A DNA stretch of 33,807 nt from a virus. Its lineage: Duplodnaviria > Heunggongvirae > Uroviricota > Caudoviricetes. Below, in pieces: positions 1 through 31,080 of the stretch. The DNA is taken from IMG/VR virus record IMGVR_UViG_2695420701_000007, positions 1 through 33,807 of that record, one strand, 5' to 3'. A model generated the notes under the pieces. The model was not told where the DNA came from and searched no databases. It saw only the letters and a program-made list of their open reading frames with translations. Position 1 is the first letter of the stretch. The number at the start of each line of letters is the position of its first letter. The translations under genes were made by a program, and so were the position numbers.

Positions 1-1773
1 GGCATCGAAGTTTCCGTAATTTAACGGAATTACCTGTCCGTTTACGGCGAACGTGATGCTGTTATCTGTATTCCTCTGGCTGAAAAAATGCCAGCCTGAA
101 TCATCACCAAGCTCTGCAACAACAGGCCTGGATGGATTACCCCACAAATAAAACGCTGCATTTTTCGTGGAGTTGTTGGCGCTGGATAACGTGAATTTTC
201 TGGCAGTTCCGGCCTGAATATTCTTAAAAGCAATAGCCACGCCATTCTGAAAACGAAATACATGCTGTCCATTCGCATAAACATCCAGCAGACCATCGCC
301 ATTTTGTTTAAACCCGGTATCGTTATCTCCTAAAACGATTGAACTTCCACCTAACGCATTCGTCGTACCAATTCCAAGACAACCATTAATGACGGCATTA
401 ACCAGAATATTTAGTGTATTCCATTTGAGATTCATCAGGTCTTTAACCCGGCCGCCAGCGAGGCGGTGTCTCCATTTGAAATATTCATTACCGTTATCCG
501 CCGTTTCAAACCACATGTAGGAATCGGTGTCTGCATCCGAATCATTTTTAAATCCAATCTTCGCCCAGTCAGTATTCCGAATCCAGGCGAGGATTGAGTC
601 GTTTTCAAAAGTCAGTCCACCGGACAAGGTATCGCCTGTCTTTTGGACAGCGTTATCAGCCTTGTTTACCGTTTCCTGTAAACCAACGTTCTGGATAAAC
701 AGCGGTTTATCGGGAATATCTGCTCCGTTCTGATTTTTTTGCAGCGCTCCTGTGATGCGGATGTCGTCACCTGCGGCTACAGTGTCCTGCGCGGTGCCAA
801 CATTAAGGGTGGCGCTGTCGCCGAGGCCCATATGCTTTCTGGCATCAGACTGGGCCTGTTCACCTTTGTCAGCAATTTCTTTCAGGTTCCCGTTACGGGT
901 CAGGTATTCGCCATCAAGGCGGTCATTTAATGGTTTGCGGGTTTTTCGTATATCGGTGATCTCGCCACTGTCTGATATTGTGGCGATGGGTTCGACATAA
1001 TGGGCAAATCCTGAACTGTCGGTATAGTCGGCTGTTTTCTGACTCGTCAGGCTGAATATGGCTTTATTTTCCCCGGTCAGGGTACCGGTTAATGCCGCGT
1101 CAACATAAACAGTTTGTGAAATTCCGGTGGCGTATGTCAGTGTGCCTTGTTCATCCAGCTCCACACGTAATCCGCGCAGATAGGCAATACCCGGCGCGAA
1201 GGTCGCCTGCCCGGTAGCCTGAGCGGTGAGTTTAAAGGCGTTATTAAAGAACAGGCCAGGCCCGTAGATATCCAGCGCCGCTTTGCGGGTGGCCTCGTCC
1301 ATGCCGTGAAGCCGTGCCGTAAAATCAATCTGCCAGGTGCTTACTGGCGTGGTGATGCCGGTTGCGGCGCTGGCTCCGGCGTATTCCATAATTTCAGAAT
1401 AAATCAGGGTATTACCCTGTTTGCCGTCTGCGGTTTTTATTTTTTTCTGAGGGTGAAGATATACCACCATACAAAGTGTATTTGTGGTGCTGCTTACCAG
1501 ACCCAGCCAGTTAAAAGTAAAATCACCCGTGGACTCCGGCAGGGTAACGGAGTAGGCGACGGTGTTCTCATTTACCATTCCGTTGCGATCAACGTTCTGG
1601 CGGTGAACTATCTGTGCATCGGGGGGCAATGGTTCGTTTTCAGACGGCGTGTCGGCAATGTTCAGATCCGGGATATTTGCAAATACAAACTGATCAATGA
1701 TGATACGGTTGCCGCCTGCGGCTTCCTGCGCTTTCAGGCGCTCAAATGCTGAAGTGATAGCGCTCTGGGTCAT
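1..1773 (-). CDS. H: Tail fiber protein (P2 gpH-like), partial; C-terminal part lies beyond the window start
   Basis: Minus-strand frame opens at ATG (complement of 1771-1773) overlapping the end of the gpI-like gene. Hand translation begins MTQSAITSAFERLKAQEAAGGNRIIIDQFVFANIPDLN and later contains NAVQKTGDTLSGGLTFENDSILAWIRNTDWAKIGFKND and GSSIVLGDNDTGFKQNGDG, typical of P2 H / long-tail-fiber proteins. No listed ORF on this strand, consistent with an open frame leaving the window. Confidence 0.8.
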   Translation of the reverse strand, partial: MTQSAITSAFERLKAQEAAGGNRIIIDQFVFANIPDLNIADTPSENEPLPPDAQIVHRQNVDRNGMVNENTVAYSVTLPESTGDFTFNWLGLVSSTTNTLCMVVYLHPQKKIKTADGKQGNTLIYSEIMEYAGASAATGITTPVSTWQIDFTARLHGMDEATRKAALDIYGPGLFFNNAFKLTAQATGQATFAPGIAYLRGLRVELDEQGTLTYATGISQTVYVDAALTGTLTGENKAIFSLTSQKTADYTDSSGFAHYVEPIATISDSGEITDIRKTRKPLNDRLDGEYLTRNGNLKEIADKGEQAQSDARKHMGLGDSATLNVGTAQDTVAAGDDIRITGALQKNQNGADIPDKPLFIQNVGLQETVNKADNAVQKTGDTLSGGLTFENDSILAWIRNTDWAKIGFKNDSDADTDSYMWFETADNGNEYFKWRHRLAGGRVKDLMNLKWNTLNILVNAVINGCLGIGTTNALGGSSIVLGDNDTGFKQNGDGLLDVYANGQHVFRFQNGVAIAFKNIQAGTARKFTLSSANNSTKNAAFYLWGNPSRPVVAELGDDSGWHFFSQRNTDNSITFAVNGQVIPLNYGNFDA

Positions 1774-2314
1774 TTTTCATCTCCGGTGCATAAAAATAGT
1801 GATAGCTGCCATGCCAGTATCCGTGTCCGATAACACAATCCGTGGATGTGATTATCTGAAGATGGTAACGGCGGCAGGTGCGACCGTACTGGCGAATTAT
1901 CTGATTGAGTAATGTTGTATTTTCTGAGATCTGGTTGTCTGTCAGGCGCAAAAGAACAACATCCCAGTCTGTGCCTGGCTGGCGCTCCTGAATCTCCACA
2001 TAACCGATCCCCAGTCGTTCAAAAATTGCCCTGAATCCCGCCACGCTGCCCGCGTCCTGTGCGTTGATAAAGGCATATTTGACACGCTTTCTGTACAGCG
2101 TGAGCGGTTCGCCGTCAAAACGGGCTATATCATATTGCCAGGCTGTCAGGTTCAGAATGGATTCCGCACATGTCAGTGGGTCGGTCTGGCTCAGTGGCCA
2201 TGTTACCCAGTCGTGCACCTTTCCCCAGAAACGGATAAAGGTGTTTTTCAGGCGGAGCACATCGCCGCGATTCAGCCATGACGGCAACTTAATGTCCGGT
2301 GATTTATCAGACAT
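1742..2314 (-). CDS. I: Baseplate/tail protein I-like (P2 gpI family)
   Basis: 190 aa; segment CAESILNLTAWQYDIARFDGE...KYAFINAQDAGSVAGFRAIFERLG follows the pattern of P2 gpI; immediately upstream of the tail fiber gene with overlapping ends. Confidence 0.7.
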   Translation of the reverse strand: MSDKSPDIKLPSWLNRGDVLRLKNTFIRFWGKVHDWVTWPLSQTDPLTCAESILNLTAWQYDIARFDGEPLTLYRKRVKYAFINAQDAGSVAGFRAIFERLGIGYVEIQERQPGTDWDVVLLRLTDNQISENTTLLNQIIRQYGRTCRRYHLQIITSTDCVIGHGYWHGSYHYFYAPEMKNDPERYHFSI

Positions 2315-3485
2315 TCTTCACCTCAACTGTCAGTGTGTTCAGGCGGGGTACGTTCAGATCGCTGATGATATCCTCAAGGGAAAACGTCACGGATCCCACC
2401 AGAGGAAAGGTGTCATGCAGTTCGCGTCCCAGTTGCGAGAATGAAAAGCGACTGTATGGCCATGTGCGGGTTACGTCGTAGTTACTGTTTTCACGGAATG
2501 CACAACGAATCAGGTTTTCAGTGCCTGATTTCAGGGCGTCGATATCGTTTTTGCTGATATTGGAAAGGTTTTCAACATACACCGTAACCGCCAGATCGTG
2601 GCGGGTTTCCGGCATGGCAAAACAACGCATATCATCGCCGTGGCCGTGATGTCCCTGTGCCATGATGTAATCATTCACGCTGTCAACCCAGGGTTGCGAA
2701 ATAACCCCGGTATCCAGCAGCAGGTAGGCATTAGCTGTACCAGGTCCTCGCGGGGCGTCATGTAAAAAGAAGATGCGATCGATGGTCAGTCCGGCCTGTG
2801 CAGCTATCAGGCTGCGGTAAACTGCGTCAGTGTGATAACTGCCGGCAAGGTTAAACTGGTTACGGCAACGATCTTTTAGTTCGTCGTCACTTTCGCGGTT
2901 TGCGCCCGGTATGGTCAGCCAGTTATCACCGTTACGTACAGACGCAATTCCGTTAATCGCTTTGGGGAGTATCTGGTAATAGCCTGGTGCCAGATTGAAT
3001 GCCGTACCGCTGTCGGTGGCGATCACATCAATAAGGGTGCTTTGCGTGCCTGCGGGGATAATTACCTGCTCGCGGGTCGCCATGGAATAAATCACACCGT
3101 TAATACGCTCCGTCTGAATCAGTGTGCCAGCCGGTACGGTCACACTGTCATTCTGGTTGTTTTTGGTAAAAATGATTTTACCGATCGCACGCGTGGCTTC
3201 CTTGCGGGTAAGCTTGAGGGCGGCAGCGAACAGGTCAACGAACGGCCCTCTGGCAGTCATCAGAAACAGATTATGCAGTACATTGTCAGCCAGTGTGTCA
3301 ACAATCCACACATACGGCGTGATAACCAGCAACTGAATCAGCCGCCAGAATGGCGACATGCGCGACGTATTGGTGATGAGTTTTTCATCATCTGCCACCT
3401 GTTGCAGGGTGTCACGTACGGTCTGTTCATCAACCGGCATTCCGCTTTCGCGCAGTATGTTTTTGAAGTCGATATTATTCTGCAT
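2307..3485 (-). CDS. Baseplate J-like protein
   Basis: 392 aa; position between W-like and I-like genes, overlapping both neighbours (coupled operon); size and order match baseplate J family. Confidence 0.6.
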   Translation of the reverse strand: MQNNIDFKNILRESGMPVDEQTVRDTLQQVADDEKLITNTSRMSPFWRLIQLLVITPYVWIVDTLADNVLHNLFLMTARGPFVDLFAAALKLTRKEATRAIGKIIFTKNNQNDSVTVPAGTLIQTERINGVIYSMATREQVIIPAGTQSTLIDVIATDSGTAFNLAPGYYQILPKAINGIASVRNGDNWLTIPGANRESDDELKDRCRNQFNLAGSYHTDAVYRSLIAAQAGLTIDRIFFLHDAPRGPGTANAYLLLDTGVISQPWVDSVNDYIMAQGHHGHGDDMRCFAMPETRHDLAVTVYVENLSNISKNDIDALKSGTENLIRCAFRENSNYDVTRTWPYSRFSFSQLGRELHDTFPLVGSVTFSLEDIISDLNVPRLNTLTVEVKNV

Positions 3486-3813
3486 AGCGCATCCCCTGGC
3501 TTAACTGACCAAAATCGTAGGTATCGGCGGTAACAAGGAGCTGGCCGCGTTGCTCTTCGTCAATAAATACGGAGCCGGGAATGAGGCGTTCATCCTCCTC
3601 CAGGAGTATCACCATTTGCGTGAACAGGTCGGCCCTGAGTGTGGGGCTGTTCTCCGCAATCAGACGACAGGGCAGACCACTTTCAATCAGGGCGTGAATC
3701 ATGTCCTGAGCAATACTCTGGCGGTTGTCACACAAGACCGGCTCACTGGCGGAGTTGAACGTAAGATCGCCGTCAGTAATGAGCAGGTCGATATAAAGTG
3801 ATTTCGTACTCAT
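3475..3813 (-). CDS. Baseplate assembly protein W-like (gp25-like)
   Basis: 112 aa, directly downstream of the tape measure gene and upstream of the J-like gene; size and position typical of GPW/gp25-type proteins. Confidence 0.5.
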   Translation of the reverse strand: MSTKSLYIDLLITDGDLTFNSASEPVLCDNRQSIAQDMIHALIESGLPCRLIAENSPTLRADLFTQMVILLEEDERLIPGSVFIDEEQRGQLLVTADTYDFGQLSQGMRYAE

Positions 3814-3816
3814 TTG

Positions 3817-5898
3817 TCACCCCGCTGCCAGTTCGCTGTATTCCGCCAGTTGTCCCGGTGTCGCCAGGGTGTCAACGTGCAGTGTGATATCCTGCTTAAC
3901 GTTGTTATTGGTGACTTTGTCGCCCCGGTTGTTGCTTATCTGGTGACTTACCGGCCCGCCCTGGATGGCGGCGCTACGGTTGCCAGTGATAAGCTCCGGG
4001 GCGGGTGTCGGTGCGACGGTCTGTTGTGCGGTGCTGATATTGACACCGGGGATTTTGTTGAGCTTCTCTGCTATCCAGTTCCATGTCCCGGTAAAGGCGC
4101 TCTTAATGGAATCCCATATGCCGTCAAAGAGCTTGCCAATTCCAGCTGTGATATTGCCGAATGTGTCGGCCAGCGAGAAATTTTTAAACCAGTTCGTCAG
4201 ATTGTCCCATCCGGCTTTAATGCTGTTCCATGCATCATCAAACCAGCCCACCACAGCGTTAATGACTTTTAGCAGGGCACTGAAAGCTTCCGTGTCCATG
4301 ATGGCGGCTTTAATACTGTCCCAGTATTTGATAGCCAGACAGATCCCTACGGCAAGTGCGGCAATGGCGAGAATAATCAGGGTTATGGGACTTATCAGGA
4401 GTTGAAGCGCACCGCCTGCGAATGCCGTCGCCACGCCCCACAGGCGCATTGCAACCGCGCCCGCACGTAACACTACGTTCCAGGCTACGATCGCTGCTTT
4501 ACAGATCCCTGCCCAAAGAGCGACCAGCTTTGACCACACCCAGACGGCTTTTTCCTGAATCCATAGCCCCATCAGGCCAAGACGGGTTGAAAGCAGGGAG
4601 GGGCGTAATAAATCCAGGGTGAAGATTAGTCCTTTCCATGCGCCTTTCAGCACGCCAGCAATTCCGCTGAGCCCGGTCATGATAAAGCCGAAGGCCCCCA
4701 TCGTGATACTGGCAAGCGCCCCTGCTGCGGCAAAGGCGAGGGTCATTGCAGTGATATATCCCAGCCAGCGGGCAATATTGGGGAACGTATCCAGCCATTT
4801 CATGAAGGCTTTCCCGCCAGTGATGATTTTTTGCAGGAACGGGGCAAAGACGGGATCGAGCCGCAGACCGATACTGACGCGAACCTGCTCCAGTAAAGAA
4901 TTAACCTGATCCCACGGGTCAACCATCTTTTTCGCCATTTCGATGGCTTTATCCATGCCTTTGATGTTACCTAATGTATTGATGTTCCGTTTCAGCCCGT
5001 CAACATCTCCGGCCAGTAGTTTAATCATGGACACCGCTTCATCGCTGCCAAAGGCTTTTTTCAGCAGGTCTGCATCTGCCACTTTTGACAGATCACCAAA
5101 CTTTCCTTTAATCAGATCGATGATGCCGGTAATGCTTCTGGCACTGCCGTCCCGGTTGGTAAAGTTCAGCCCCAGCACTTTTTGCGCATTCCCAATCCCC
5201 GCCAGGAATGATTTATATTTGGTTCCCGCCTCGCTGCCTGACATGGTGGACTGGAGCTGTCCCAGTACGGCGAACTGTTCAGCGGCAGATACCTTCATTG
5301 CCTGCGCGTTGGCACCCAGCGCAGTAAAGGCAGCAGACATTTCATTACCGGTAGTTTTGAACACCTGAACGGCGGTTGCGGTCTGCCCGGCAATTTGTTC
5401 AACCCACTGCGTGCGCCCCATCTTCTCTGCGGTATTTTTAAAAACACCGTACATGGTGCCCATATAGTTAGTAATGGTGGCCGTGTCTGATTTGGTGGCT
5501 TTGGCGAGAATGGCGGATGCTTCAGTAAATTTTGGCAGTTCATCGCCCTGAAGTCCTGCGATGGCGGACTGGATATCGTAGGCGCTGCGGACGAAATTGC
5601 TGGCGCTTTCGCCGTAGTTAATGGCAAACGTCTGTGAAGTTTTACGCAGCTGATCGAGTGTTTTATTTGCCACATCCAGCGAGCTGACTTCGGCCAGCGC
5701 GGCTTCCATGTCGCGGGCGGGGTTGACCAGTCCTTTTATTCCCTGAGCAGCACCCCATAACCCGGCCACACCAAAACCGAGACGTTTAAAGTCGGCTGTT
5801 GCCTTGTCAGCAAATCCGGTCACAGCCGATTGCGCCTGTTTTAAGGGTCTCGTCAGCTTATCAACCAGACTTAGCGTAAAATCAAGTTCAGCAGCCAT
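3817..5898 (-). CDS. Tail tape measure protein
   Basis: 693 aa, Ala/Gly-rich with long predicted helices and a hydrophobic central block; follows the chaperone/frameshift gene; start ATG overlaps the stop of the E' frame (TAATG). Confidence 0.8.
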   Translation of the reverse strand: MAAELDFTLSLVDKLTRPLKQAQSAVTGFADKATADFKRLGFGVAGLWGAAQGIKGLVNPARDMEAALAEVSSLDVANKTLDQLRKTSQTFAINYGESASNFVRSAYDIQSAIAGLQGDELPKFTEASAILAKATKSDTATITNYMGTMYGVFKNTAEKMGRTQWVEQIAGQTATAVQVFKTTGNEMSAAFTALGANAQAMKVSAAEQFAVLGQLQSTMSGSEAGTKYKSFLAGIGNAQKVLGLNFTNRDGSARSITGIIDLIKGKFGDLSKVADADLLKKAFGSDEAVSMIKLLAGDVDGLKRNINTLGNIKGMDKAIEMAKKMVDPWDQVNSLLEQVRVSIGLRLDPVFAPFLQKIITGGKAFMKWLDTFPNIARWLGYITAMTLAFAAAGALASITMGAFGFIMTGLSGIAGVLKGAWKGLIFTLDLLRPSLLSTRLGLMGLWIQEKAVWVWSKLVALWAGICKAAIVAWNVVLRAGAVAMRLWGVATAFAGGALQLLISPITLIILAIAALAVGICLAIKYWDSIKAAIMDTEAFSALLKVINAVVGWFDDAWNSIKAGWDNLTNWFKNFSLADTFGNITAGIGKLFDGIWDSIKSAFTGTWNWIAEKLNKIPGVNISTAQQTVAPTPAPELITGNRSAAIQGGPVSHQISNNRGDKVTNNNVKQDITLHVDTLATPGQLAEYSELAAG

Positions 5899-6095
5899 TA
5901 CCCACCTTTAAATGCTCTCGCAATGCCGTTATTGATGGCAATACTCATGTTTTCGAAATAACGGTTGTCCAGCCAGACCGCAGCGGCAATGTCTTCCGGT
6001 GTGTCCTCGCCATCCGGTAGCCAGTGGCGGCGCAATACCAGATATTGCGCGTAGCCGTTGCGCTCAATGCCGGACAGTGCCGCCTTTATTTTTTT
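5898..6095 (-). other. Programmed -1 ribosomal frameshift site and E' extension (chaperone E+E' fusion)
   Basis: Slippery heptamer A_AAA_AAA (complement of 6089-6095) followed in the -1 frame by an open frame of about 56 codons (IKAALSGIERNGYAQYLVLRRHWLPDGEDTPEDIAAAVWLDNRYFENMSIAINNGIARAFKGG) ending at a TAA that overlaps the tape measure ATG. Confidence 0.65.
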
Positions 6096-6385
6096 ACGGT
6101 GATATCCAGATTGACGGCAAAATCTTCATTGAGTTTTGCTGCCATCTGAAGGGCTGCTCCCGGGCGGTGAATGAGCTTCTCCAGTTTCTCTTTGTCTTCC
6201 GGGTGTACGCAGCGCATCAGGTAGTTTTTGGCTGGTGCTACCTTGTTATCCATCGTTATTTCATTCACGAACTTGTTGTAGACAGCTTCGGTCGGGGCGA
6301 AGCGAATATCCTCGCCTGCGACGGTCAGGGTGATGATGGTGGTATTTTCGTCTTTCATGCTATTTTCCCCGGTGAGTGGTGCCAT
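6086..6385 (-). CDS. Tail assembly chaperone (gpE-like; zero-frame product)
   Basis: 99 aa ORF directly upstream of the tape measure gene; ends ...ACC GTA AAA AAA TAA with a slippery A_AAA_AAA heptamer just before the stop. Confidence 0.65.
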   Translation of the reverse strand: MAPLTGENSMKDENTTIITLTVAGEDIRFAPTEAVYNKFVNEITMDNKVAPAKNYLMRCVHPEDKEKLEKLIHRPGAALQMAAKLNEDFAVNLDITVKK

Positions 6386-6388
6386 TTT

Positions 6389-6853
6389 TTAATGACATTG
6401 TTCAGTAATGTACTGTTGCAGGCCGTTCACTTGTGCAACGACGGCTTTCGCTTCGGCTCTGAGATGCTGATAATCCCGTTCAGCGTCCGGAGTAAGTCGG
6501 GCGGCGGTTGCATCAGTTGAGCCGGTGGCGGTGGTATCACGCGTGGCGGCGGGCATACAGACGGCGTGGAGCTGCAACCGGCGACGGCCAGAAGCAAGAT
6601 CGGCGCGTAACTTTTCGGATTCAGCTTTTGCATTGGCGAGCTCCTTTGTGTATTTCGCATCAAGCGCGGCGTTCTGGCGCTGACGCAGTGTCATGTCGTC
6701 AATGGTCTGCTGTCGGGTGTCGGCAAGCTTTACGGCTTTCTGGCGGGCTTTTTCTGCCCTGGTGAAGCGGTTGTGCCAGTGGTCAGCCGTGAAGCCGAGC
6801 ACGGCCACGGCGACGACCATGAAGACGATAAAGGCGAGCGTTGCGCGTTTCAT
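6389..6853 (-). CDS. Rz-like i-spanin (inner-membrane spanin)
   Basis: 154 aa; N-terminal TM segment (LAFIVFMVVAVAVLGF), then coiled-coil region with DAKYTKELANAKAE...GRRRL, C-terminal YITEQC; closely resembles lambda Rz. Confidence 0.8.
   Translation of the reverse strand: MKRATLAFIVFMVVAVAVLGFTADHWHNRFTRAEKARQKAVKLADTRQQTIDDMTLRQRQNAALDAKYTKELANAKAESEKLRADLASGRRRLQLHAVCMPAATRDTTATGSTDATAARLTPDAERDYQHLRAEAKAVVAQVNGLQQYITEQCH
6427..6633 (-). CDS. Rz1-like o-spanin lipoprotein, embedded in Rz in another frame
   Basis: Listed ORF 6427-6663; likely start at the internal Met (MQKLNPKSYAPILLLAVAGCSS) giving a lipobox LAVAGC followed by a proline-rich body (CPPPRVIPPPPAQLMQPPPD). Confidence 0.7.
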   Translation of the reverse strand: MQKLNPKSYAPILLLAVAGCSSTPSVCPPPRVIPPPPAQLMQPPPDLLRTLNGIISISEPKRKPSLHK

Positions 6854-6859
6854 GTGGCC

Positions 6860-7303
6860 TTACCTCTGTCCCAGAAACATTGCCCGTTCACGTCCGCGAC
6901 GCGGGGCCAGAATTGTCGGGTTACTGCCTGCGCGGCTCCATTTCAGGAAAGCATCAGCGGCGGCGGTGTAGTTGCCGGCGTTTAACTGACGGCGAACGGT
7001 GGAACCGATAAAAGCGTCAGCGCCGATATTGAAAATCAGGCTACACAACGCGTCATACTGACTCTGGTTCAGCGGAACTGTTACCCGTTCAGCGATGCAG
7101 TGCTCCACCCATGACAGATCGTCGCGTAGCAGTCTGTCGGCGGTGTCCTGAGTGATGGTCATGCCCTTGTGAACTGCGACACCATCAACCTTTCCTGTGT
7201 GACCTGTACCAATGGTCCATACGCCGCGCGGGTCGGGGTAAGCGGTCAGTTTGCAGTTTTCTTCGCGTTTAAGTGCGGTCAGCCCGTTGTCTGAAATTTT
7301 CAT
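6860..7303 (-). CDS. Endolysin, phage lysozyme (T4-lysozyme-like, GH24 pattern)
   Basis: 147 aa; N-terminus GLTALKREENCKLTAYPDPRGVWTIGTGHTG matches the lysozyme catalytic region (E...D...T triad context); start overlaps the holin stop. Confidence 0.8.
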   Translation of the reverse strand: MKISDNGLTALKREENCKLTAYPDPRGVWTIGTGHTGKVDGVAVHKGMTITQDTADRLLRDDLSWVEHCIAERVTVPLNQSQYDALCSLIFNIGADAFIGSTVRRQLNAGNYTAAADAFLKWSRAGSNPTILAPRRGRERAMFLGQR

Positions 7304-7638
7304 TCGTCATTTTTCCCTGCAAATTTCTTTGTGATGAACACACCCAGTGCCCGGATATGTTCAACACCAATAAGGCCAATTGCGGCACCGATACCGACGC
7401 GCCAGTCTTCGGCCAGCCATGCGACGGGGACCGGCTTGATGAGGGTGAATGCCGCCACGGCCAGCAGGCAACACAACGGCACCTCAAGCAAAAGACGACG
7501 CCAGCTGCGGCCTGTGTAAAACACTCTGAGTGCTGCAATGACGGCAGTCATCAGTAGACTGTCAAGAGGGATATCACCACGTAACCAGTCTTTGATTATC
7601 GCCAGCCAGTCGCTCCAGTTGTGGGGAGGGCTTTGCAT
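7300..7638 (-). CDS. Holin (putative, 3 hydrophobic segments)
   Basis: 112 aa with hydrophobic segments LLMTAVIAALRVFY, LLLEVPLCCLLAVAAFTLI, VGIGAAIGLIGV and charged C-terminus (KKFAGKNDE); immediately upstream of the lysozyme. Confidence 0.6.
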   Translation of the reverse strand: MQSPPHNWSDWLAIIKDWLRGDIPLDSLLMTAVIAALRVFYTGRSWRRLLLEVPLCCLLAVAAFTLIKPVPVAWLAEDWRVGIGAAIGLIGVEHIRALGVFITKKFAGKNDE

Positions 7639-7646
7639 TGTCTTTC

Positions 7647-8108
7647 CTATTGGTTCATGATGTCCCGAACATCGGTGGCGCTGAGAACCGGAACACCGTC
7701 AATTTTGACGAACTCCGGCGAAGTCACCATAAATTTGATTTTATGGCTTATGTTGTCACCGCCCTTGCTGTCGATACTCAGCAGGTTACTGATCAGCAGT
7801 TTGCAACCAAAGGCTTCCACCCTGAGTTCTGTCTTTGCTGCACGGGCAAAGAAGAGAAAGTCGGCTTCTTCGATGTCGCGCCAGCTCCCTGCTTCACGCG
7901 CGGCTTCGCCAAGAAGCTGGAAGTTAACGGTATCCAGTTCAATTTCACCGCCAGCTTCCACGTCGCCGCGTACCCAGCCATCAGGTACACCGCGCTCCTG
8001 GATGGCTTTGGTGTTGTCGGTAATATCAAGGGTGGCAGTTTTTACGTGAACGATGCGGCCATTAAATGACACGTCAAAGCTCATGCCACTGATGCGTTCG
8101 GTGCTCAT
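7647..8108 (-). CDS. Tail tube protein (putative)
   Basis: 153 aa, directly downstream of the sheath-sized gene; size and position fit a contractile-tail tube protein. No sequence motif recognised with certainty. Confidence 0.5.
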   Translation of the reverse strand: MSTERISGMSFDVSFNGRIVHVKTATLDITDNTKAIQERGVPDGWVRGDVEAGGEIELDTVNFQLLGEAAREAGSWRDIEEADFLFFARAAKTELRVEAFGCKLLISNLLSIDSKGGDNISHKIKFMVTSPEFVKIDGVPVLSATDVRDIMNQ

Positions 8109-8111
8109 GGG

Positions 8112-9236
8112 TTACTCTCCGCTTTCGTCCAGCATGATGCTGATGGTGATTTCTTTCGGGCAGTTATACGGGCGAACCACGATCGCAATCTGCACTTTGT
8201 CTTTTTCCGGCCATGAGATTTTTACGTCGCCGTCGCGCGGTGACATGCAAAGGCCAGGGAATACCGTGCCGTTGATTTTCAGGCTCTTTGCGCCGTCGCG
8301 CATGGGCTTCGCAAAAAGCTGTTGGTGCGCGGCCACACTTGCCGGGGTGGAGTTCAGTGAGCGATCGGCGATTTTTGGGATAGCCAGCAAACGCACCTGA
8401 CGGGCCATTTCATCGGCAACGCGCAGATATTCGATAGCCTGATAATCGCCACCGTCCACATCGAGCGTGACGCCGTCGGCCCAGTAGTAACCTTCGTAGT
8501 CGGGATACCACGTTGGTACGCTGAAACGCGCCCTGTTCAGGGCCCTGATGGTGGCAGTGTCCAGTTCGCGCTTGTCGCTGTCCTGCGGTTTATCGTTGCG
8601 GCCCATATTGACCAGTGCGCCGGTTGCAACACGGGCGGGGGAATCAGCGATCGTCACTGACGGATTGCAAAGGCGACCGGCCAGTATCCCCGGCTCATTG
8701 CCGAACAGCATCGGGGTAAGCTGCACCGCGTAAGCGGCAATGTCTTTCTGTAGTCCGGTTATGGCGGTGACGTATTCTGACCACTTCTCGCCTGTTCCGC
8801 AGCCGCGAACAGCCAGGATAAACCATGTCCAGCGCTGGAAGGTGTTATTGAGTTCGCTGCGCAGTTGCTGCGCTTTGTTGATATCGTCACCTGAGGCGTT
8901 AGCGCGAACAACGACAACGCCTTCCACCGAGAGGGTGGCCTGTGCATCCATAACCACATCAACCCACGTTCGGGTCCGACCAGAAGGCTGGGGTGTCTGC
9001 ACGGTTGCCAGCCAGATCATGGCATTTTGTCCGGCATTATCCAGAAACGCCTGCACGTTACTGCGCAACAATGAATCCTTTGTTCCTAGCAGCGAGTCAA
9101 GATCGGTTTGTGCTGTAACCGGTGTCGGGAGAATGGCTTTTGTGTGCTCGCCCACCATCAGCAGGGTGCAGGCGATCCCACGCTTGCTTCCGCTGTGGGT
9201 GTTGAGCTGATTAATCGTGACCTGTGGAAACGTCAT
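8112..9236 (-). CDS. Tail sheath protein (putative)
   Basis: 374 aa, follows the S-like gene and precedes the tube gene; assignment by size and synteny. Confidence 0.5.
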   Translation of the reverse strand: MTFPQVTINQLNTHSGSKRGIACTLLMVGEHTKAILPTPVTAQTDLDSLLGTKDSLLRSNVQAFLDNAGQNAMIWLATVQTPQPSGRTRTWVDVVMDAQATLSVEGVVVVRANASGDDINKAQQLRSELNNTFQRWTWFILAVRGCGTGEKWSEYVTAITGLQKDIAAYAVQLTPMLFGNEPGILAGRLCNPSVTIADSPARVATGALVNMGRNDKPQDSDKRELDTATIRALNRARFSVPTWYPDYEGYYWADGVTLDVDGGDYQAIEYLRVADEMARQVRLLAIPKIADRSLNSTPASVAAHQQLFAKPMRDGAKSLKINGTVFPGLCMSPRDGDVKISWPEKDKVQIAIVVRPYNCPKEITISIMLDESGE

Positions 9237-9239
9237 GGG

Positions 9240-9968
9240 TTATTTCCTCTTAATGTCCTGCGGCTTTGTCTGCCAGCCATAATTAATGCCCTGCAACTGG
9301 CGGGACAGTATCCGTGCAAATTCCTCGTTACTGACACCAAGGAACTGACGGGGTGGGATGGTTATCGTCCAGCAGCTTTTGGATGGTATGCCTTCCATGC
9401 TGCGGATAATCACGCCTGCCTGCCCTTTCGTGAGCGACGTCCGGATATCTGCCGTTGATGGTTTGCGGCGCGTCCCCTTTTTTTTGCCGCTCACCGTATA
9501 GCCCAGCTTGCGCAGCTTTATCGCCTGACGGCGGGAGCAGGGTTCCTTATTGGCTTTTTCCATCGCGTCGGTTTTCAGCTGCGATGCGTTCACTGTGAAC
9601 GTAACGCCATGGCTCTGGATATATCCCACTGCACCTACGCTGATTTCCCTGTGATTGTGGGGCTGGCGATAGCTCCTGCCTGCTGCGTATATACGCACCG
9701 ATTCTGCTGATGGCATGTCGTGCACTTTCAGAAATTTAGGGAGCCCCTTCAGCAGCGGTCTGTTGCCGTAGCGGCGTTCTGCAAAACTGCTGCCATCAAC
9801 ATTCTTTTGTTCGCGAACATGGCGCTTTGCGGCCGGAATAACGCCGCGTTTTGCGATACGCTGCAGCAGACGCTGTCGTTTTGCCGGGGGGATCTCACCG
9901 TTGGCCAGCATTGTCTGCAGTTGCTTAAGCTGCGTCCGGTTAAGTTCGCCGTGCAGGGAGATGTCCAT
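9240..9968 (-). CDS. Tail completion / virion morphogenesis protein (P2 gpS-like)
   Basis: 242 aa; VREQKNVDGSSFAERRYGNRPLL resembles the gpS family motif (QQKNPDGSPWAP-type); basic Lys/Arg-rich middle. Confidence 0.55.
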   Translation of the reverse strand: MDISLHGELNRTQLKQLQTMLANGEIPPAKRQRLLQRIAKRGVIPAAKRHVREQKNVDGSSFAERRYGNRPLLKGLPKFLKVHDMPSAESVRIYAAGRSYRQPHNHREISVGAVGYIQSHGVTFTVNASQLKTDAMEKANKEPCSRRQAIKLRKLGYTVSGKKKGTRRKPSTADIRTSLTKGQAGVIIRSMEGIPSKSCWTITIPPRQFLGVSNEEFARILSRQLQGINYGWQTKPQDIKRK

Positions 9969-9971
9969 TGT

Positions 9972-10451
9972 TTATTTCCCTGCCCTGATGGTGGATACAG
10001 TGATATTTTCTGCCACCCAGATCTCTGGCTTATCCAGCCGGTAACGGATGCCGCCCATCATGATAAAACCGGCCTCGTCCGGGATCAGAATGATGGGGTC
10101 AGCGAGAGGCATACTGACAGTCACTTCTGCAATGTTGTCGTCCGTGGGTTCGATGTTGACATCCGGCGCATCAAGCTCAAGCTGGCTGTAGTAGTCATTA
10201 GCCTGTTCGTCCCGCCAGACAAGCAGGGCGCATAACAGCAAATCAGGGTCAACCTGACGCCATGGCCAGCGCTGCCAGTCGAACACGGCGTTGTACTGGC
10301 GAATACCCATTCTTATCTGTCCAAGCCCCATGTCTTTCTCAGCGGGCAAAAGACGAATATCACTCATCCACGAATCAAAGCCGGTATTGTCAAACACGGA
10401 AATGTCAAACGCCTGCCGCAGATATGCATAAAGGCTGTCGAACTGGCTCAT
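9972..10451 (-). CDS. Tail completion protein (P2 gpR-like)
   Basis: 159 aa; LLLCALLVWRDEQ segment resembles the gpR family; located between L-like and S-like genes as in P2. Confidence 0.5.
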   Translation of the reverse strand: MSQFDSLYAYLRQAFDISVFDNTGFDSWMSDIRLLPAEKDMGLGQIRMGIRQYNAVFDWQRWPWRQVDPDLLLCALLVWRDEQANDYYSQLELDAPDVNIEPTDDNIAEVTVSMPLADPIILIPDEAGFIMMGGIRYRLDKPEIWVAENITVSTIRAGK

Positions 10452-17438: not shown

Positions 17439-17957
17439 TTATTCGAAGCTGGCAAGAATCTGTTCTCGAACAGAAGATTTCATCGTTAACCCACGATCCA
17501 GGAAAAATTGGAAATGCATTAAGGCTTGTTGTTTGTGGATAAATCTCCTGCGCACAGCCTCCTGGAGTAGCCCTCCGTGGCGGGCGGCTTTTACACCGCG
17601 TTCCGCACACGTTTTATAAACCGCATTATCCGCCGAAAGACATGTTGCATCATGTATTCTCGCGTTAACAACGCAGCTTATGTCCGCATACTTCAATGCT
17701 CTCCTGCGATTTTTTATCTCAGCCATTTCAATAAAATGTTCAGGTTCGTAATCATTGGTGAAATTGTATGGAAGTTGCAGGCGTGTAAGCTGTTCCTGAA
17801 CATCAAGATTGTATTTAGCTTTTAGTTCCTCGCAGACATAGGGGTCAATCCACACACCACCCGGGTAAATTTGCCAGATAAGATCTAAGCATTTACCTTC
17901 GTAAAAATCAGACAGTACATTCGTATCGATAACACATCTGGGGCATTCAAACGGCAT
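17439..17957 (-). CDS. PIN-like domain protein (DUF4411-like), putative toxin/nuclease
   Basis: Listed ORF 17439-17990; probable start MPFECPRCVIDTNVLSDFYEG (complement of 17955-17957), overlapping the upstream gene stop by about 11 nt. VIDTNVL is the typical N-terminal strand-1 motif of PIN domains; region is AT-rich. Confidence 0.55.
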   Translation of the reverse strand: MPFECPRCVIDTNVLSDFYEGKCLDLIWQIYPGGVWIDPYVCEELKAKYNLDVQEQLTRLQLPYNFTNDYEPEHFIEMAEIKNRRRALKYADISCVVNARIHDATCLSADNAVYKTCAERGVKAARHGGLLQEAVRRRFIHKQQALMHFQFFLDRGLTMKSSVREQILASFE

Positions 17958-19092
17958 CCTCTCCGGCCTCCTGTTCGTCGTACCATTCATCCAGAAGATT
18001 GCTGAGAGCTTTTCTGTCTAATTCTAAAAGTTCAGATATGAAGGTTTCCGACGCGGAACCGGCTTCCCATGCTTTACGCGATAAGACGGTTAGGCGACCT
18101 TTATAATTTAGTGCTTCCCTTATGGGATTTGGCTCGTGTCTCTTCCAGCCTTTACGATTGGCGGTTGCCCATAGGTATCTAGTGTTTTGCTGATTAATTA
18201 AATTACATTTACTAAGACGCTCAATGATGCAAGTGGCTGATACTCTGAAAATGCTTTTTAGTCTAAGGACGGTTTCCTCATACGCCCATCCACCACCTTG
18301 CATGACGAATTGTTTTCGCAACGCGCTTTCTGGTACCAAAAAACAAGCAGCAAAGTGATTAGCAACTTTTTCTTCCGGTGAAATTGCTTTGCCATTAGTT
18401 TTATAGCTTTTAGCAGGGCCATCATACTCATCACGGTGGAAGATAAGATGAGCATATTCATGGCAAATACTGAAGATTTGACGTTCTATTGAAATGCTGT
18501 CGTGAACATTTACATAAATCGCGGTACCGTATTTGTTCGAAAACGCAGAAAATCCGAATACCATCCCTTTATCGGTTTCCTCGCGATTGAACGGGATCAC
18601 TCGAATATCCGATGCTTCCAAAATGGCTACAATGTCACCAACGCAAGTAGCGTTTCCCATACCAAGACGGAAACGTTCTTCCATAGCCTTATCTTCGACT
18701 CTTCGCAAATCTTCTGCTTTGGCGGTAAAAACAGGCATTGAGTTAGGAAGATCTTCTGGCAAATTAGCATCAGCAGCTTCCTCAATTGCATTGATATTTT
18801 TTAACTTTTCAATCAACTCATTGCGAAGTCTGGCATCCAACAAATCCGGACTATCTGCTCGCATTGCAAAACGAAACTCGCCATCATCTTGCTCATAAAA
18901 ATACCCGACAGGCTTATCGAAAATCTTGCAGAGCATGATGAGTTGGGTAACGCTTGGGACGCCTAGCGCCTGCTCAAACTTACTGTAGGTTTGACGAACA
19001 ACACCGATCGCATCTGCGACGGCGCTTGCACTCATTCCTGCGTCGTTTCTGGCCTGAACCAAGCGTTCTGCTATACGCTGTTGAATGTTCAT
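17947..19092 (-). CDS. XRE-family HTH domain fused to ImmA/IrrE-type zinc metallopeptidase (COG2856-like)
   Basis: 381 aa; N-terminal HTH (MSASAVADAIGVVRQTYSKFEQ), C-terminal HExxH motif (ICHEYAHLIF) in a context typical of ImmA/IrrE peptidases; AT-rich codon usage. Confidence 0.65.
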   Translation of the reverse strand: MNIQQRIAERLVQARNDAGMSASAVADAIGVVRQTYSKFEQALGVPSVTQLIMLCKIFDKPVGYFYEQDDGEFRFAMRADSPDLLDARLRNELIEKLKNINAIEEAADANLPEDLPNSMPVFTAKAEDLRRVEDKAMEERFRLGMGNATCVGDIVAILEASDIRVIPFNREETDKGMVFGFSAFSNKYGTAIYVNVHDSISIERQIFSICHEYAHLIFHRDEYDGPAKSYKTNGKAISPEEKVANHFAACFLVPESALRKQFVMQGGGWAYEETVLRLKSIFRVSATCIIERLSKCNLINQQNTRYLWATANRKGWKRHEPNPIREALNYKGRLTVLSRKAWEAGSASETFISELLELDRKALSNLLDEWYDEQEAGEDAV

Positions 19093-23635: not shown

Positions 23636-24190
23636 TCAGTTCGGCAGCAGTTCGTACAACAGGGCGTCGGCGGCGGTCCGGCGGTTGTAGAGGTGAAACG
23701 CCGTATCATCGCTGATGTGCATTTGCATCGTGATGTTGATGTGTTTCGCGATTATGCAGAACGTCATGTTGCGTCTGTCGCGTAGCTCCGTAACCAGCTC
23801 AGCCAGACGATCGCTGTATCTGGTGCAATGGTGGCTCTCGCCGCATTTCTTAAGGCTGTAACCCCGTTTATGCAGTGTGTACCTCACGGTGCACTCGCTG
23901 CGTCCCACCTTCCGGGCCAGTTCCCGTGCGGTTTTTGCGTGACGGTTTTTGGTGAGAAAGGCGATGGCTTCTGCACTCAGCGGTGCTTTTCTCTTGCGAC
24001 CAATCAACCCGCGATTACGTAAAAAAAGAATCCGGTGCATCACTGCGCTGCGGGTTCGCTGAAGTCGTTCAGCCATTTGCCATGTGCTGTGATCCTGATA
24101 AAGCGAGATAAGCAGTTCGTCTTCCTGTTGTGTCCAGGCACTGACGTGCTTCGGTGCTTTACCTGGTCCCCCCATTGGTTTCAGAAACAT
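23636..24190 (-). CDS. Putative DNA-binding regulator with two HTH-like repeats
   Basis: 184 aa; two helix-turn-helix-like segments (STWQMAERLQRTRSAVMHRI and TARELARKVGRSECTVRYTL). Confidence 0.4.
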   Translation of the reverse strand: MFLKPMGGPGKAPKHVSAWTQQEDELLISLYQDHSTWQMAERLQRTRSAVMHRILFLRNRGLIGRKRKAPLSAEAIAFLTKNRHAKTARELARKVGRSECTVRYTLHKRGYSLKKCGESHHCTRYSDRLAELVTELRDRRNMTFCIIAKHINITMQMHISDDTAFHLYNRRTAADALLYELLPN

Positions 24191-24492
24191 GATTTGGCCT
24201 CCTTACGGCTTTCTGGTGTGGAGATGATCAGATTCAGTTTCAGGGCGGTGGCGTGTTCCTCTTTTGCCCCCGGCGAGTCCTCCCAGCCATCCAGCAGGTA
24301 AATCACATCGGCACAGTGCAGCATGGCGCTCCCGATAAGCATGTAGTCCCTGTATCTCAGCCCGTCAGGGAGTGTTGCGGGGTTGAGTACGGTATGACCC
24401 TGCATCCTCAGGCGGGTCGCCGTCATGGTGAAGGCGGTGCGGTTGAAATCAGGCTTCCCCGTCATGGGGCCAGCGATATAGATAACGGCCAT
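24181..24492 (-). CDS. Nucleoside 2-deoxyribosyltransferase-like protein (DUF4406-like)
   Basis: 103 aa starting MAVIYIAGPMTGKPDFNRTAF, the typical N-terminus of the DUF4406 / deoxyribosyltransferase-like fold found in phages. Confidence 0.5.
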   Translation of the reverse strand: MAVIYIAGPMTGKPDFNRTAFTMTATRLRMQGHTVLNPATLPDGLRYRDYMLIGSAMLHCADVIYLLDGWEDSPGAKEEHATALKLNLIISTPESRKEAKSCF

Positions 24493-25451
24493 TACATGAT
24501 CTCCGTGGTGGGGTGTGGAGCGGGAATGTGAGACAGCCAGCCCGCATTGACATCCCGGATCCGGACCTCACGGGCTGGCGGATAAACACCAATCACCTCT
24601 TTTGCCTGCTGGCGTGCACTGCTGCTGGCAGCCACAGCGCGGCGAACGCTCAGGGTGTGCAGCTCAAACGAGGAATAGATCTGCCGGGTTTCGGAGGTGT
24701 CACTGTTGGAGACCACCGGGTGGATACCGTAACGCTGCCAGGCGTTCATCATGAGCGCCGCAAGGTCACGGTGGTCTTTGCGGGTAAATGCCCGGCCGTT
24801 GTAGTGAGTGAACGCCTCTTTACCGTCCGGTGGCAGGTAGGGCGGATCGCAGTAAATGGCGATATCGCCGTGCACCGAAGAAAAACGGCGGATCTCAGCC
24901 GGCATTGTGAAGGCTGTACGGAAATCCGCGTGAATAAAGCGGGTCCGGGTCTCGTTGGCTTTATCAGCAAACAGGCGCATTTCCTGGCAGGGGAAATAAG
25001 GCATGCGGTGTTTGCCGAATGGCACATTGAATTCGCCTTTTTGGTTGGTGCGGTACAGGCCGTTAAAGCAATGGCGGTTCAGGTACAGAAACAGCGCTGC
25101 CCATTCCAGGGATTCGCCGCGTAATCTGTCGGTGGCCAGCGCGATGGTGTTAAATGCCCCGCGATGGCGTTTGTAGGCTTCCGGTGTGCCGCCATCCTTA
25201 AAGAGCGACCATGCACGATCCATTAATTCCGTGGTGTTGGTCGTCAGTTGCTGGTAGAAATTAATCAGCGCGGGGTTGCTGTCACACAATACGTAATAGT
25301 CATAATCCGTGTTCATGAAGACCGAGCCGCCGCCCACGAAGGGTTCGATCAGGCAGGCGGCTTTGGGTAAATATTCGCGCAGCTGCGGCATGATACTGAA
25401 TTTGCCGCCCGCCCATTTGAGCGGTGAGCGCTGGTTCAGAATACCTTTCAT
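24492..25451 (-). CDS. dam: DNA adenine methyltransferase (Dam-like, D12 class N6-A MTase)
   Basis: 319 aa; N-terminal LKWAGGK motif, catalytic DPPY motif (IAIYCDPPYLPP), FxGxG-like SAM region (EPFVGGGSV). Confidence 0.8.
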   Translation of the reverse strand: MKGILNQRSPLKWAGGKFSIMPQLREYLPKAACLIEPFVGGGSVFMNTDYDYYVLCDSNPALINFYQQLTTNTTELMDRAWSLFKDGGTPEAYKRHRGAFNTIALATDRLRGESLEWAALFLYLNRHCFNGLYRTNQKGEFNVPFGKHRMPYFPCQEMRLFADKANETRTRFIHADFRTAFTMPAEIRRFSSVHGDIAIYCDPPYLPPDGKEAFTHYNGRAFTRKDHRDLAALMMNAWQRYGIHPVVSNSDTSETRQIYSSFELHTLSVRRAVAASSSARQQAKEVIGVYPPAREVRIRDVNAGWLSHIPAPHPTTEIM

Positions 25452-30874: not shown

Positions 30875-30981
30875 AAAGTGGCGATAAAAAGTGACAATAG
30901 ATTCAAATGGCGTTGTATAGAGCTATTTTCAAAGTTAATAAAATCATAAGGTTATGATTTATAAATGGTGGTTGATAGTTT

Positions 30982-31035
30982 TTAAAATCCCTCGGCGTTC
31001 GCGCTGTGCGGGTTCAAGTCCCGCTCCGGGTACCA
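30982..31035 (+). tRNA. leuZ: 3' fragment of tRNA-Leu (leuZ-type): phage att core / prophage-host junction
   Basis: TTTAAAATCCCTCGGCGTTCGCGCTGTGCGGGTTCAAGTCCCGCTCCGGGTACCA matches the anticodon-loop-to-CCA part of E. coli tRNA-Leu(UAA) from memory; the sequence upstream does not complete the 5' acceptor stem or D arm, so this is a partial copy. Confidence 0.7.
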
Positions 31036-31080
31036 TGGGAAAGATAAGAATAAAATCAAAGTAATAAGCAGTGTCGTGAA

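Follow-up and report, generated by a model that had tools for sequence, protein, structure and literature searches.

An Escherichia coli prophage with the standard HP1-type tail-gene order and, by comparison with its relatives, probable distal hub–spike genes beyond the contig end

We analysed a 33,807-bp stretch of DNA (the window), which is an entire assembly contig (CXDJ01000036.1, GCA_001260415.1), and find that it very probably carries an intact prophage with the standard HP1 gene order, the distal hub and spike genes of which are lost from view through a contig break in the fibre gene. Judged from its genes, the prophage belongs to the long-recognised HP1 subgroup of Peduoviridae (PMC10612066, PMC2771037), and virion production is predicted. 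A preliminary description of this DNA had called the order of the tail module atypical for a P2-like phage. That holds relative to P2 itself but not for HP1-type phages, the canonical order of which (HP1, K139) is the one seen here. The tail-gene order is the normal, long-published and already known order of the HP1 branch, and what is new about the prophage concerns its species or genus and does not extend to its organisation.

Genes were called from open reading frame (ORF) translations, Pfam, PHROGs and NCBIfam matches and BLASTP comparison with HP1. All the tail genes of positions 1–9236 lie on the minus strand, in the succession after S that the preliminary description had read:

8112–9236, minus strand: 374-aa HP1-type tail sheath, homologue of HP1 orf23 (DUF2586, 4.8e-115; phrog_907 ‘tail sheath’, 1e-126; 51% identity to HP1 orf23)
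7647–8108, minus strand: 153-aa HP1-type tail tube, homologue of HP1 orf24 (Phage_HP1_Orf24, 2.1e-54; 51% identity to HP1 orf24)
6389–7638, minus strand: lysis cassette, between tube and chaperone
7300–7638, minus strand: holin (Phage_holin_3_1, 2.3e-15)
6860–7303, minus strand: lysozyme (Phage_lysozyme, 1.8e-39)
6389–6853, minus strand: Rz (Phage_lysis, 8.4e-33)
6427–6663, minus strand: Rz1 ORF embedded in Rz (lipobox LLLAVAGC, proline-rich tail)
5898–6385, minus strand: tail assembly chaperone with −1 frame extension, analogue of P2 E/E′ (Phage_TAC_10, DUF6890)
3817–5898, minus strand: 693-aa tape measure, homologue of HP1 orf27 (PhageMin_Tail, 1.7e-28; phrog_28, 4e-90; 37% identity to HP1 orf27)
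3475–3813, minus strand: 112-aa DUF2590 protein, homologue of HP1 orf28 (DUF2590, 1.3e-38; 58% identity to HP1 orf28)
2307–3485, minus strand: 392-aa baseplate wedge protein of the P2 gpJ/Mu gp47 class, homologue of HP1 orf29 (Baseplate_J, 8e-27; 50% identity to HP1 orf29)
1742–2314, minus strand: 190-aa baseplate wedge protein of the P2 gpI class, homologue of HP1 orf30 (Tail_P2_I, 7.7e-07; phrog_1228, 1e-79)
1–1773, minus strand: tail fibre, N-terminal 591 codons, cut by the contig end (Phage_tail_fib, 2.9e-27)

Profile annotation of the sheath, tube and 112-aa proteins, which the preliminary description had proposed, thus gave DUF2586, Phage_HP1_Orf24 and DUF2590; for sheath and tube these HP1-type families were the only Pfam matches at E ≤ 0.01, the P2 FI/FII families being absent. 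The chaperone itself has 99 aa (6086–6385; Phage_TAC_10, 4.5e-31) and its extension spans 5898–6089 (DUF6890, 3.6e-23). An A_AAA_AAA heptamer lies at 6095–6089, the −1 frame stays open between 6125 and the start of the tape-measure gene, and a −1 frameshift at the heptamer would yield the extension. The 190-aa protein scores 29.5 bits with Tail_P2_I against a curated cut-off of 20.6 and is 51% identical to HP1 orf30. The fibre gene encodes 668 aa in identical prophages, where it is present at full length (related loci L001 and L004), and its 3′ part (window positions 61–739) matches the fibre genes H of P2 and S of Mu at 81–91% nucleotide identity; this 3′ part is common to other prophages as well. 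With NCBIfam, the tail proteins gave only sub-threshold VgrG and tail_P2_I matches.

From orf21 to orf35, HP1 corresponds to the prophage genes one for one in order and length, with BLASTP identities of 26–58% (37–58% over orf21–orf31). The gene order of the HP1 subgroup was found in the late region of the window and its orf33/34/35 genes in the contigs of relatives, the window ending before that point. Neither the split tail order with separate gpV and gpD genes nor the FI/FII families of P2 proper were found.

Upstream of the sheath, the head module (Q and P divergent from O, N, M and L) and then R and S are of P2 type, and the P2 order given in the preliminary description was confirmed by Pfam and PHROGs. 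Phage_cap_P2, Phage_term_smal, Phage_GPL and P2_Phage_GpR matched the corresponding genes, and RefSeq names the same genes in the related prophage L001 as portal, large terminase, scaffold and P2-family capsid. The tail completion genes are also recognisable, the R-like protein by P2_Phage_GpR (6e-14) and the region of the two genes by phrog_26 (3.8e-19) and phrog_65 (1.7e-15); the match to Phage_tail_S was sub-threshold (2.4e-3):

9240–10451, minus strand: tail completion genes, S-like (242 aa, 9240–9968) and R-like (159 aa, 9972–10451) (Pfam, PHROGs)

At its other end the window reaches host DNA, and it would hold most of an intact HP1-type E. coli prophage inserted at the leuZ tRNA-Leu gene:

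29873–30874: integrase
30981–31101, plus strand: prophage end beside the integrase, a copy of the tRNA-Leu (leuZ) 3′ part and terminator that forms the att repeat (exact repeats)

The att repeat was recognised from 68-bp and 39-bp exact repeats shared with positions 6008–6075 and 6090–6128 of the L001 locus, where these copies sit at the tRNA-Leu that flanks the prophage on its tail side. To the right of the integrase-side att lie host genes, yecA-like and a tyrosine/tryptophan permease gene. The window also contains cargo (PIN and HTH-M78 genes) and an ogr-type zinc-finger gene after Q. The genes of the late region are closely spaced and may form one transcription unit; a promoter/terminator scan found no excess of terminator-like sites there, with counts the same as in shuffles, which is absence of evidence for internal terminators only. 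The prophage would be inducible.

No ORF in the whole 33,807-bp window gave a hub, spike or gpU family match, in agreement with the preliminary description, which had seen no V-, U- or D-type genes. HP1-type E. coli prophages with 99% identity were found; the prophage is carried by 6 of 5,426 complete E. coli genomes. In all the 99%-identical prophages a fibre-assembly gene and homologues of HP1 orf33, orf34 and orf35 follow the fibre gene. All longer contigs with identical 190-aa or 562-aa proteins run on in the same way, through fibre, TFA, the orf33-like gene, HP1_ORF34 (PF25759, 1.2e-48), the 562-aa protein and hok to host genes; hok thus adjoins the tail end of the prophage in these relatives. 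The end of the fibre and the later genes would be missing from the window only through the assembly break within the fibre gene, and, going by the 99%-identical genomes, the distal genes of the window’s own genome would lie on another contig.

Structure prediction gave functional candidates for two of the three distal proteins. The AF2 model of the 562-aa orf35-like protein has an N-terminal pLDDT of about 88 and a C-terminal half of low confidence as a monomer, and shows the VgrG-type architecture of a gp27-like hub, a gp5-like OB fold and a beta-helix, the last with the C-terminal part at low confidence. Foldseek returned full-length VgrG-type matches (AlgoCIS, 2.7e-18; Pvc8, 5e-16; Afp8, 5.5e-15; VgrG1, 5e-13) together with hub and spike matches (Mu gp44, 1.3e-9; R2 pyocin hub 6u5h, 4.9e-6; Mu gp45; R2 spike 4s37). 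P2 gpD is a sequence homologue of 6u5h, and P2 gpV of 4s37/9ki1_V. The sequence profile of the protein matched VgrS (8.7e-5) and VgrG (1.5e-3, over residues 284–463), NCBIfam gave a sub-threshold match to vgr_GE (2.9e-7), and a single-sequence PDB search gave marginal VgrG matches only. As modelled, the 562-aa protein is a VgrG-type fusion of a hub (P2 gpD class) and a spike (P2 gpV class). The 188-aa orf34-like protein gave a weaker model, the fold matches of which were tube-initiator or ‘ripcord’ proteins, including pyocin PA0626, a P2 gpU homologue (3e-13), and Cis7/Pvc7; it is probably a tube initiator of the P2 gpU class. Alignment of the orf34- and orf35-like families with P2 gpU, gpD and gpV by hhalign was not significant, with shallow alignments and single-sequence templates. 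These distal-gene assignments are already recorded in a 2023 paper, with gpU marked as uncertain (PMC10612066, Table S1 and text).

The equivalents of gpD and gpV, in fused form, would lie beyond the left end of the window, as probably would that of gpU, and these genes depart from the canonical P2 order because they are positioned after the fibre genes. One explanation offered in the preliminary description, that the hub and spike genes lie beyond the left end, is in this way supported: the contig ends in the fibre gene and relatives continue with the orf33–35 homologues. It had also considered V, U and D homologues just outside in canonical order; in relatives they are indeed outside, but the order is not canonical. 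The third distal protein, of the orf33 family, is conserved and always encoded just before the gpU-class and hub–spike genes (226–258 aa in the E. coli relatives and HP1; 297 aa in K139), with no detectable fold or family relatives. Tentatively, it could be a baseplate or tape-measure-associated part specific to HP1 tails, for example replacing the P2 LysM protein gpX; the placing of the hub genes last might reflect an expression or assembly logic unlike that of P2; and the E. coli/Shigella/Salmonella prophage group may form a genus within the HP1 subgroup that has yet to be named.

Only its position, its size and a weak similarity support the label ‘W-like’ for the 112-aa DUF2590 protein. In a PDB search with a profile built from 87 homologues, the top two hits were ‘sheath initiator’ proteins, from phages E217 and Pa193, at a non-significant E of about 0.12, and hhalign of the family against P2 gpW gave a probability below 1%, with D74-x-R76 aligned with the gpW E-P-R motif. 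A published HHpred assignment places HP1 orf28 and its family with gpW, at 17% identity (PMC10612066). A sheath initiator of the gpW/gp25 class is the probable identity of this protein. Single-sequence PDB searches of the sheath, tube, 188-aa and 226-aa proteins returned nothing useful, and there appears to be no solved structure of any HP1-type tail protein detectable by sequence.

The absence of hub and spike genes from a window that stops in the fibre gene would also fit a defective prophage, cut within or after that gene, stripped of its hub and spike genes and hence unable to build a baseplate, as the preliminary description had entertained. The contig break falls inside the fibre gene, but the left end of the window is where the assembly stops and does not join host DNA; the distal genes, followed by host DNA, occur on every other contig that encodes identical proteins; all morphogenesis ORFs in the window, including every late ORF, are intact; and the att repeat on the integrase side is in place. 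We consider a defective prophage very unlikely. Less probable still, to the point of being negligible, is that the 112-aa and 392-aa proteins are mislabelled and are themselves U- and D-like hub or spike proteins, in which case the module would be P2-like. Their sizes are near those of P2 U (159 aa) and D (387 aa), and they follow the tape measure directly, as in P2 (T-U-D). However, the 392-aa protein is a clear Baseplate_J protein at 8e-27 and is placed by PHROGs among the ‘baseplate wedge subunit’ proteins, the top two PDB hits for the 112-aa family are the sheath initiators, and the hub–spike fold sits in the distal 562-aa protein instead. The reassignment that the preliminary description had thought might overturn its reading did not occur, and we rejected these two candidates, since they are DUF2590 and Baseplate_J proteins.

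That the prophage represents a new lineage, or a recent recombinant of a P2 head with a foreign tail module in an order unseen before, is likewise highly improbable. Three observations speak for it: none of the isolated phages in the collection has a sheath more than 60% identical, only the six complete E. coli genomes carry the prophage, and the 3′ part of the fibre gene is a mosaic of P2/Mu type. The DUF2586 sheath is common to 76 phage records, all below 60% identity and including HP1, HP2, F108, K139, phiO18P and ESSI-2; among the records listed, sheath identity ranges over 34–54%, with K139 at about 37% and ESSI-2-like phages reaching 54%. When positions 1–9300 were compared with isolated phages by megablast, only the fibre 3′ part matched, and there is therefore no close cultured relative. 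The gene order, however, is identical to that of HP1 and K139, and the pairing of a P2-type head with an HP1-type tail is ancient and defines the HP1 subgroup as a whole (PMC10612066). The distinct P2-related lineage suggested in the preliminary description is this subgroup of Peduoviridae, and not a new one.

The main value of the intact HP1-type reading is as a correction: the gene order is a signature of the HP1 subgroup, neither an anomaly nor decay. The signature consists of a P2-type head, then sheath, tube, lysis, chaperone, tape measure, DUF2590, J, I and fibre, with the gpU-class and fused hub–spike genes after the fibre. Annotation pipelines still name these genes ‘hypothetical’, ‘DNA-binding protein’ or ‘DUF’, and under such labels the baseplate hub of these prophages can wrongly be scored as absent in completeness checks, whether automated or by eye. 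Truncation can, moreover, be mimicked when an assembly breaks within a fibre gene common to several prophages.

Compared with known phages, the prophage is closest in organisation to HP1 (Hpunavirus; NC_001697), the orf15–orf35 region of which has the same gene order and near-identical lengths from Q/P through orf35. Both have the DUF2586 sheath and the HP1_Orf24 tube, lysis genes placed between tube and chaperone, a DUF2590/J/I block that immediately follows the tape measure, and orf33/34/35 downstream of the fibre-assembly gene. Unlike HP1, the prophage has E. coli as its host, integrates at leuZ, has a lambda-S-type holin and a fibre whose distal part resembles P2 H and Mu S, and carries cargo genes and, after Q, a zinc-finger gene of the ogr type. 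Vibrio phage K139 (Longwoodvirus) has the same module order, with orf37–39 as the three distal genes, and differs in an extra zinc-finger gene between tube and holin; in its record, one promoter is marked ahead of O and one terminator behind orf39. The HP1-subgroup Peduoviridae F108, phiO18P, ESSI-2 and ACA1 also have this module order, including the three distal genes, although the gpD-like and gpV-like genes are separate in ACA1 and fused in HP1, as in the relatives of the prophage (PMC10612066).

P2 (Peduovirus) and the prophage are alike in the order of the head genes Q, P, O, N, M and L followed by R and S, the gpA-type replication protein, the ogr-type activator, the gpJ- and gpI-class wedge proteins, the H-type fibre with its assembly protein and the E/E′-type chaperone logic. 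P2 differs in its FI/FII-type sheath and tube, in lysis genes that lie between X and R, and in tail operons V-W-J-I-H-G and FI-FII-E-T-U-D with V and D as separate genes, whereas the blocks of the prophage run [sheath tube lysis E T][W J I H G][orf33 U D~V]. In predicted architecture (hub, OB fold and beta-helix), the 562-aa protein resembles VgrG, Afp8 and Pvc8, and the predicted fold of the 188-aa protein may resemble that of the pyocin ripcord PA0626 and of the Cis7/Pvc7 tube initiators. The distal proteins share only 7–15% sequence identity with those of R2 pyocin, type VI secretion systems (T6SS) and extracellular contractile injection systems, and, unlike secretion-system or tailocin loci, their genes belong to the virion gene set of a temperate phage.

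On the minus strand, positions 1–10451 of the window are filled without interruption by tightly packed open reading frames (ORFs), neighbouring late genes overlapping or lying a few bases apart. ORF calls and family searches in Pfam and PHROGs gave the following assignments.

Late genes of the window (coordinates, strand, product, length and family match with E value)
9972–10451, minus: R-like tail completion protein, 159 aa; P2_Phage_GpR, 6e-14
9240–9968, minus: S-like tail completion protein, 242 aa; phrog_26, 4e-19 (Pfam Phage_tail_S only sub-threshold)
8112–9236, minus: sheath, 374 aa; DUF2586, 5e-115; PHROG 'tail sheath', 1e-126
7647–8108, minus: tube, 153 aa; Phage_HP1_Orf24, 2e-54
7300–7638, minus: holin, 112 aa; Phage_holin_3_1, 2.3e-15
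6860–7303, minus: lysozyme, 147 aa; Phage_lysozyme, 1.8e-39
6389–6853, minus: Rz, 154 aa; Phage_lysis, 8.4e-33
6427–6663, minus: Rz1, embedded in Rz; lipobox and proline-rich tail
6086–6385, minus: tail assembly chaperone, 99 aa; Phage_TAC_10, 4.5e-31
3817–5898, minus: tape measure, 693 aa; PhageMin_Tail, 1.7e-28
3475–3813, minus: DUF2590 protein, 112 aa; DUF2590, 1.3e-38
2307–3485, minus: wedge protein, 392 aa; Baseplate_J, 8e-27
1742–2314, minus: wedge protein, 190 aa; Tail_P2_I, 7.7e-07
1–1773, minus: fibre, 591 codons, running off the left end; Phage_tail_fib, 2.9e-27

The order proposed in the preliminary description (sheath, tube, lysis genes, chaperone, tape measure, W-, J- and I-like genes, fibre) is thus correct in every particular. 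The chaperone gene is followed in the −1 frame by a DUF6890 extension (5898–6089); an A_AAA_AAA heptamer (6089–6095, minus strand) lies within the last chaperone codons, and from there the −1 frame, which encodes DUF6890, is open through to the tape-measure start. We infer that chaperone and extension follow the E/E′ logic of P2 by −1 frameshifting. In RefSeq, the DUF6890 stretch is annotated not as the outcome of a frameshift but as an independent 63-aa 'DUF6890 family protein'. Family searches across the whole window found no ORF resembling a hub, a spike or gpU, in agreement with the reported lack of V-, U- and D-type genes. The 112-aa and 392-aa proteins were considered as hub or spike candidates and rejected, being members of DUF2590 (1.3e-38) and Baseplate_J (8e-27), respectively.

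The preliminary description called this order atypical, but synteny comparison with annotated genomes shows it to be that of Haemophilus phage HP1 and of Vibrio phage K139. The HP1 genome has exactly the gene order of the window: Q, P / O, N, M, orf20 (L), orf21 (R), orf22 (S), orf23 (sheath) and orf24 (tube); then hol, lys, orf25 (Rz), orf26 (chaperone), a 189-nt gap and orf27 (689 aa); and then orf28 (111 aa), orf29 (393 aa), orf30 (174 aa), orf31 (fibre), orf32 (assembly), orf33, orf34 and orf35. In pairwise BLASTP of window proteins against their positional counterparts in HP1, identity was 58% for the DUF2590 protein (orf28), 50% for the J-like protein (orf29), 51% for the I-like protein (orf30), the sheath and the tube, and 37% for the tape measure. 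Sheaths of the DUF2586 family were found in 76 phage records, among them HP1, HP2, F108, K139, Kappa, phiO18P, ESSI-2, SW5 and phi3. Lavigne et al. (2009) divided P2-related phages into 'P2-like' and 'HP1-like' viruses, and a 2023 paper on the Pseudoalteromonas phages ACA1 and ACA2 described a tail module deeply diverged between HP1 and P2 subgroups (PMC10612066). The suggestion of a distinct P2-related lineage therefore holds insofar as the phage belongs to the HP1 subgroup of Peduoviridae, but this group is not new and has already been named. PDB sequence searches with the HP1-type sheath and tube detected no relative among solved structures, and on this basis the HP1-type tail appears structurally uncharacterised.

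Two further explanations had been offered for the missing genes: that they lie beyond the left end, or that the prophage is defective. Contig CXDJ01000036.1 (GCA_001260415.1) has the window's length of 33,807 bases and, at the corresponding position, encodes a 190-aa protein identical to that of the window, so the left edge of the window is where a contig stops, within the fibre gene. The 3′ part of this gene (61–739) shares 81–91% nucleotide identity with the P2 H and Mu S fibre genes, a type found in many E. coli prophages, and this resemblance probably caused the assembly break, which mimics truncation. A defective prophage is not borne out: all late ORFs in the window are intact, the tRNA-Leu repeat is present beyond the integrase and there is no sign of decay. 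Just past the integrase (30981–31101), the 3′ portion of tRNA-Leu (leuZ) is duplicated over 68 bp and its terminator over 39 bp. Both stretches are exact repeats shared with positions 6008–6128 of L001, an E. coli prophage locus about 99% identical to the left-hand 9.3 kb of the window that extends past the window's left end; there the tRNA-Leu adjoins the prophage tail end, which carries a hok/gef gene and a 93-aa ORF. The repeats mark both ends of a prophage of about 37 kb (left end from L001, right end from the window), and host genes for a yecA-like protein and a tyrosine/tryptophan permease follow on the integrase side.

The location beyond the left end is borne out in relatives, in which orf34- and orf35-like genes come after the fibre and assembly genes. 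The left-hand 9.3-kb region of the window is present in six complete E. coli genomes at 99.1–99.3% identity, and the distal order was read from one of these, L001, and from every longer contig encoding the identical 190-aa or 562-aa protein.

Distal genes in relatives, in order from the fibre
1: fibre, 668 aa
2: fibre assembly protein; Caudo_TAP, 7e-37
3: 226/247-aa protein; 26% identical to HP1 orf33
4: 188-aa protein; Pfam HP1_ORF34 'baseplate complex protein', 1.2e-48; 45% identical to HP1 orf34
5: 562-aa protein; phrog_2258 'baseplate protein', 6e-196; 34% identical to HP1 orf35
6: hok/gef gene, then host DNA

A model of the 562-aa protein, built from a 15-sequence alignment, has a pLDDT near 88 over residues 1–230 and a poor C-terminal half, as would be predicted when a trimeric beta-helix is modelled as a single chain. 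Its full-length Foldseek partners in the PDB are VgrG-type hub–spike fusions (AlgoCIS, 2.7e-18; Anabaena CIS, 1.5e-17; Pvc8, 5e-16; Afp8, 5.5e-15; VgrG1, 5e-13); the N-terminal part matches hubs (Mu gp44, 1.3e-9; R2 pyocin hub 6u5h, 4.9e-6; T4 gp27, 7e-4) and the C-terminal part spikes (Mu gp45 and R2 pyocin 4s37, 5e-3 to 1.5e-2). Sequence profiles match VgrS (8.7e-5) and VgrG (1.5e-3) over residues 284–463, and NCBIfam vgr_GE was also matched (2.9e-7). P2 gpD is related by sequence to the pyocin hub (7.6e-46), as is P2 gpV to 4s37 and Mu gp45; with the fold and profile matches above, this identifies the 562-aa protein as the predicted counterpart of D and V in fused form.

The model of the 188-aa protein is weaker (mean pLDDT 60, core near 80). 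Its predicted fold is tube-initiator-like, and the pyocin protein PA0626 is homologous to P2 gpU in sequence (3e-13); we assign the protein to the gpU class with moderate confidence. The HP1_ORF34 family is mostly named 'DNA-binding protein' in NCBI source records and baseplate complex protein in UniRef and Pfam; the NCBI name is probably wrong. For the DUF2590 family, a profile of 87 diverse homologues had the 'sheath initiator' proteins of E217 and Pa193 as its two best PDB matches (E about 0.12, not significant). Comparison with P2 gpW by hhalign was likewise not significant, the nearly invariant D74-x-R76 aligning with the gpW E-P-R motif, and a W-like role for the 112-aa protein is plausible. 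Table S1 of PMC10612066 pairs HP1 P51732 with gpW ('sheath initiator') and, marked uncertain, P51738 with gpU; our predicted-structure results, obtained independently, agree with its assignments. In HP1, K139 and the E. coli prophages, the conserved orf33 family (L001 10358–11038; 226–297 aa) is always encoded with the fibre assembly gene on one side and the gpU-class gene on the other; it had no match in Pfam, NCBIfam or the PDB, and its sole PHROG family is of unknown function.

Elsewhere the window carries the P2-type head genes together with an ogr-type zinc-finger gene, genes for gpA-type replication and a Dam methylase, regulators, the integrase, host genes and a cargo pair. The pair (17439–19092, minus), between the ogr-type and replication-side genes, encodes a PIN-domain protein (183 aa, 4e-05) overlapping an HTH and Peptidase_M78 (ImmA/IrrE-like) protein (381 aa), and has the lowest GC of the late and replication region (0.43 versus about 0.55); it looks like acquired toxin–antitoxin or defence-like cargo. 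In the early region (24181–25451, minus), a D12-class N6-adenine DNA methyltransferase (319 aa, 3e-52) adjoins a DUF4406 protein (103 aa). Prophages encoding the identical 190-aa protein (L006) or the identical 562-aa protein (L019) are flanked by other host genes (pheT/ihfA-like, greA/dacB-like), not pgsA/uvrC, so the phage or its variants appear to use more than one integration site.

The phage is thus an unremarkable HP1-subgroup member of the Peduoviridae, viewed through a contig broken in the fibre gene. Its organization was already known, the HP1 and K139 GenBank records having the same order and the functional mapping having been published in 2023; the novelty is modest, namely an E. 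coli/Shigella/Salmonella prophage group without an isolated relative above 60% sheath identity. Terminator-like sites in the late region are no commoner than in shuffled sequence, and the K139 record annotates only one promoter, ahead of O, and only one terminator, downstream of the final gene; together with the tight packing, this suggests that the late region is probably one long transcription unit, which would be switched on by the ogr-type protein. In P2 the tail blocks are (V)(W J I H G) and (FI FII E T)(U D), whereas the HP1-type late region reads (sheath tube lysis E T)(W J I H G)(orf33 U D~V). Both keep U before D, but in the HP1 type the wedge and fibre block stands between T and U, D and V are fused into one gene, and the lysis genes, which in P2 precede R and S, lie inside the tail block.
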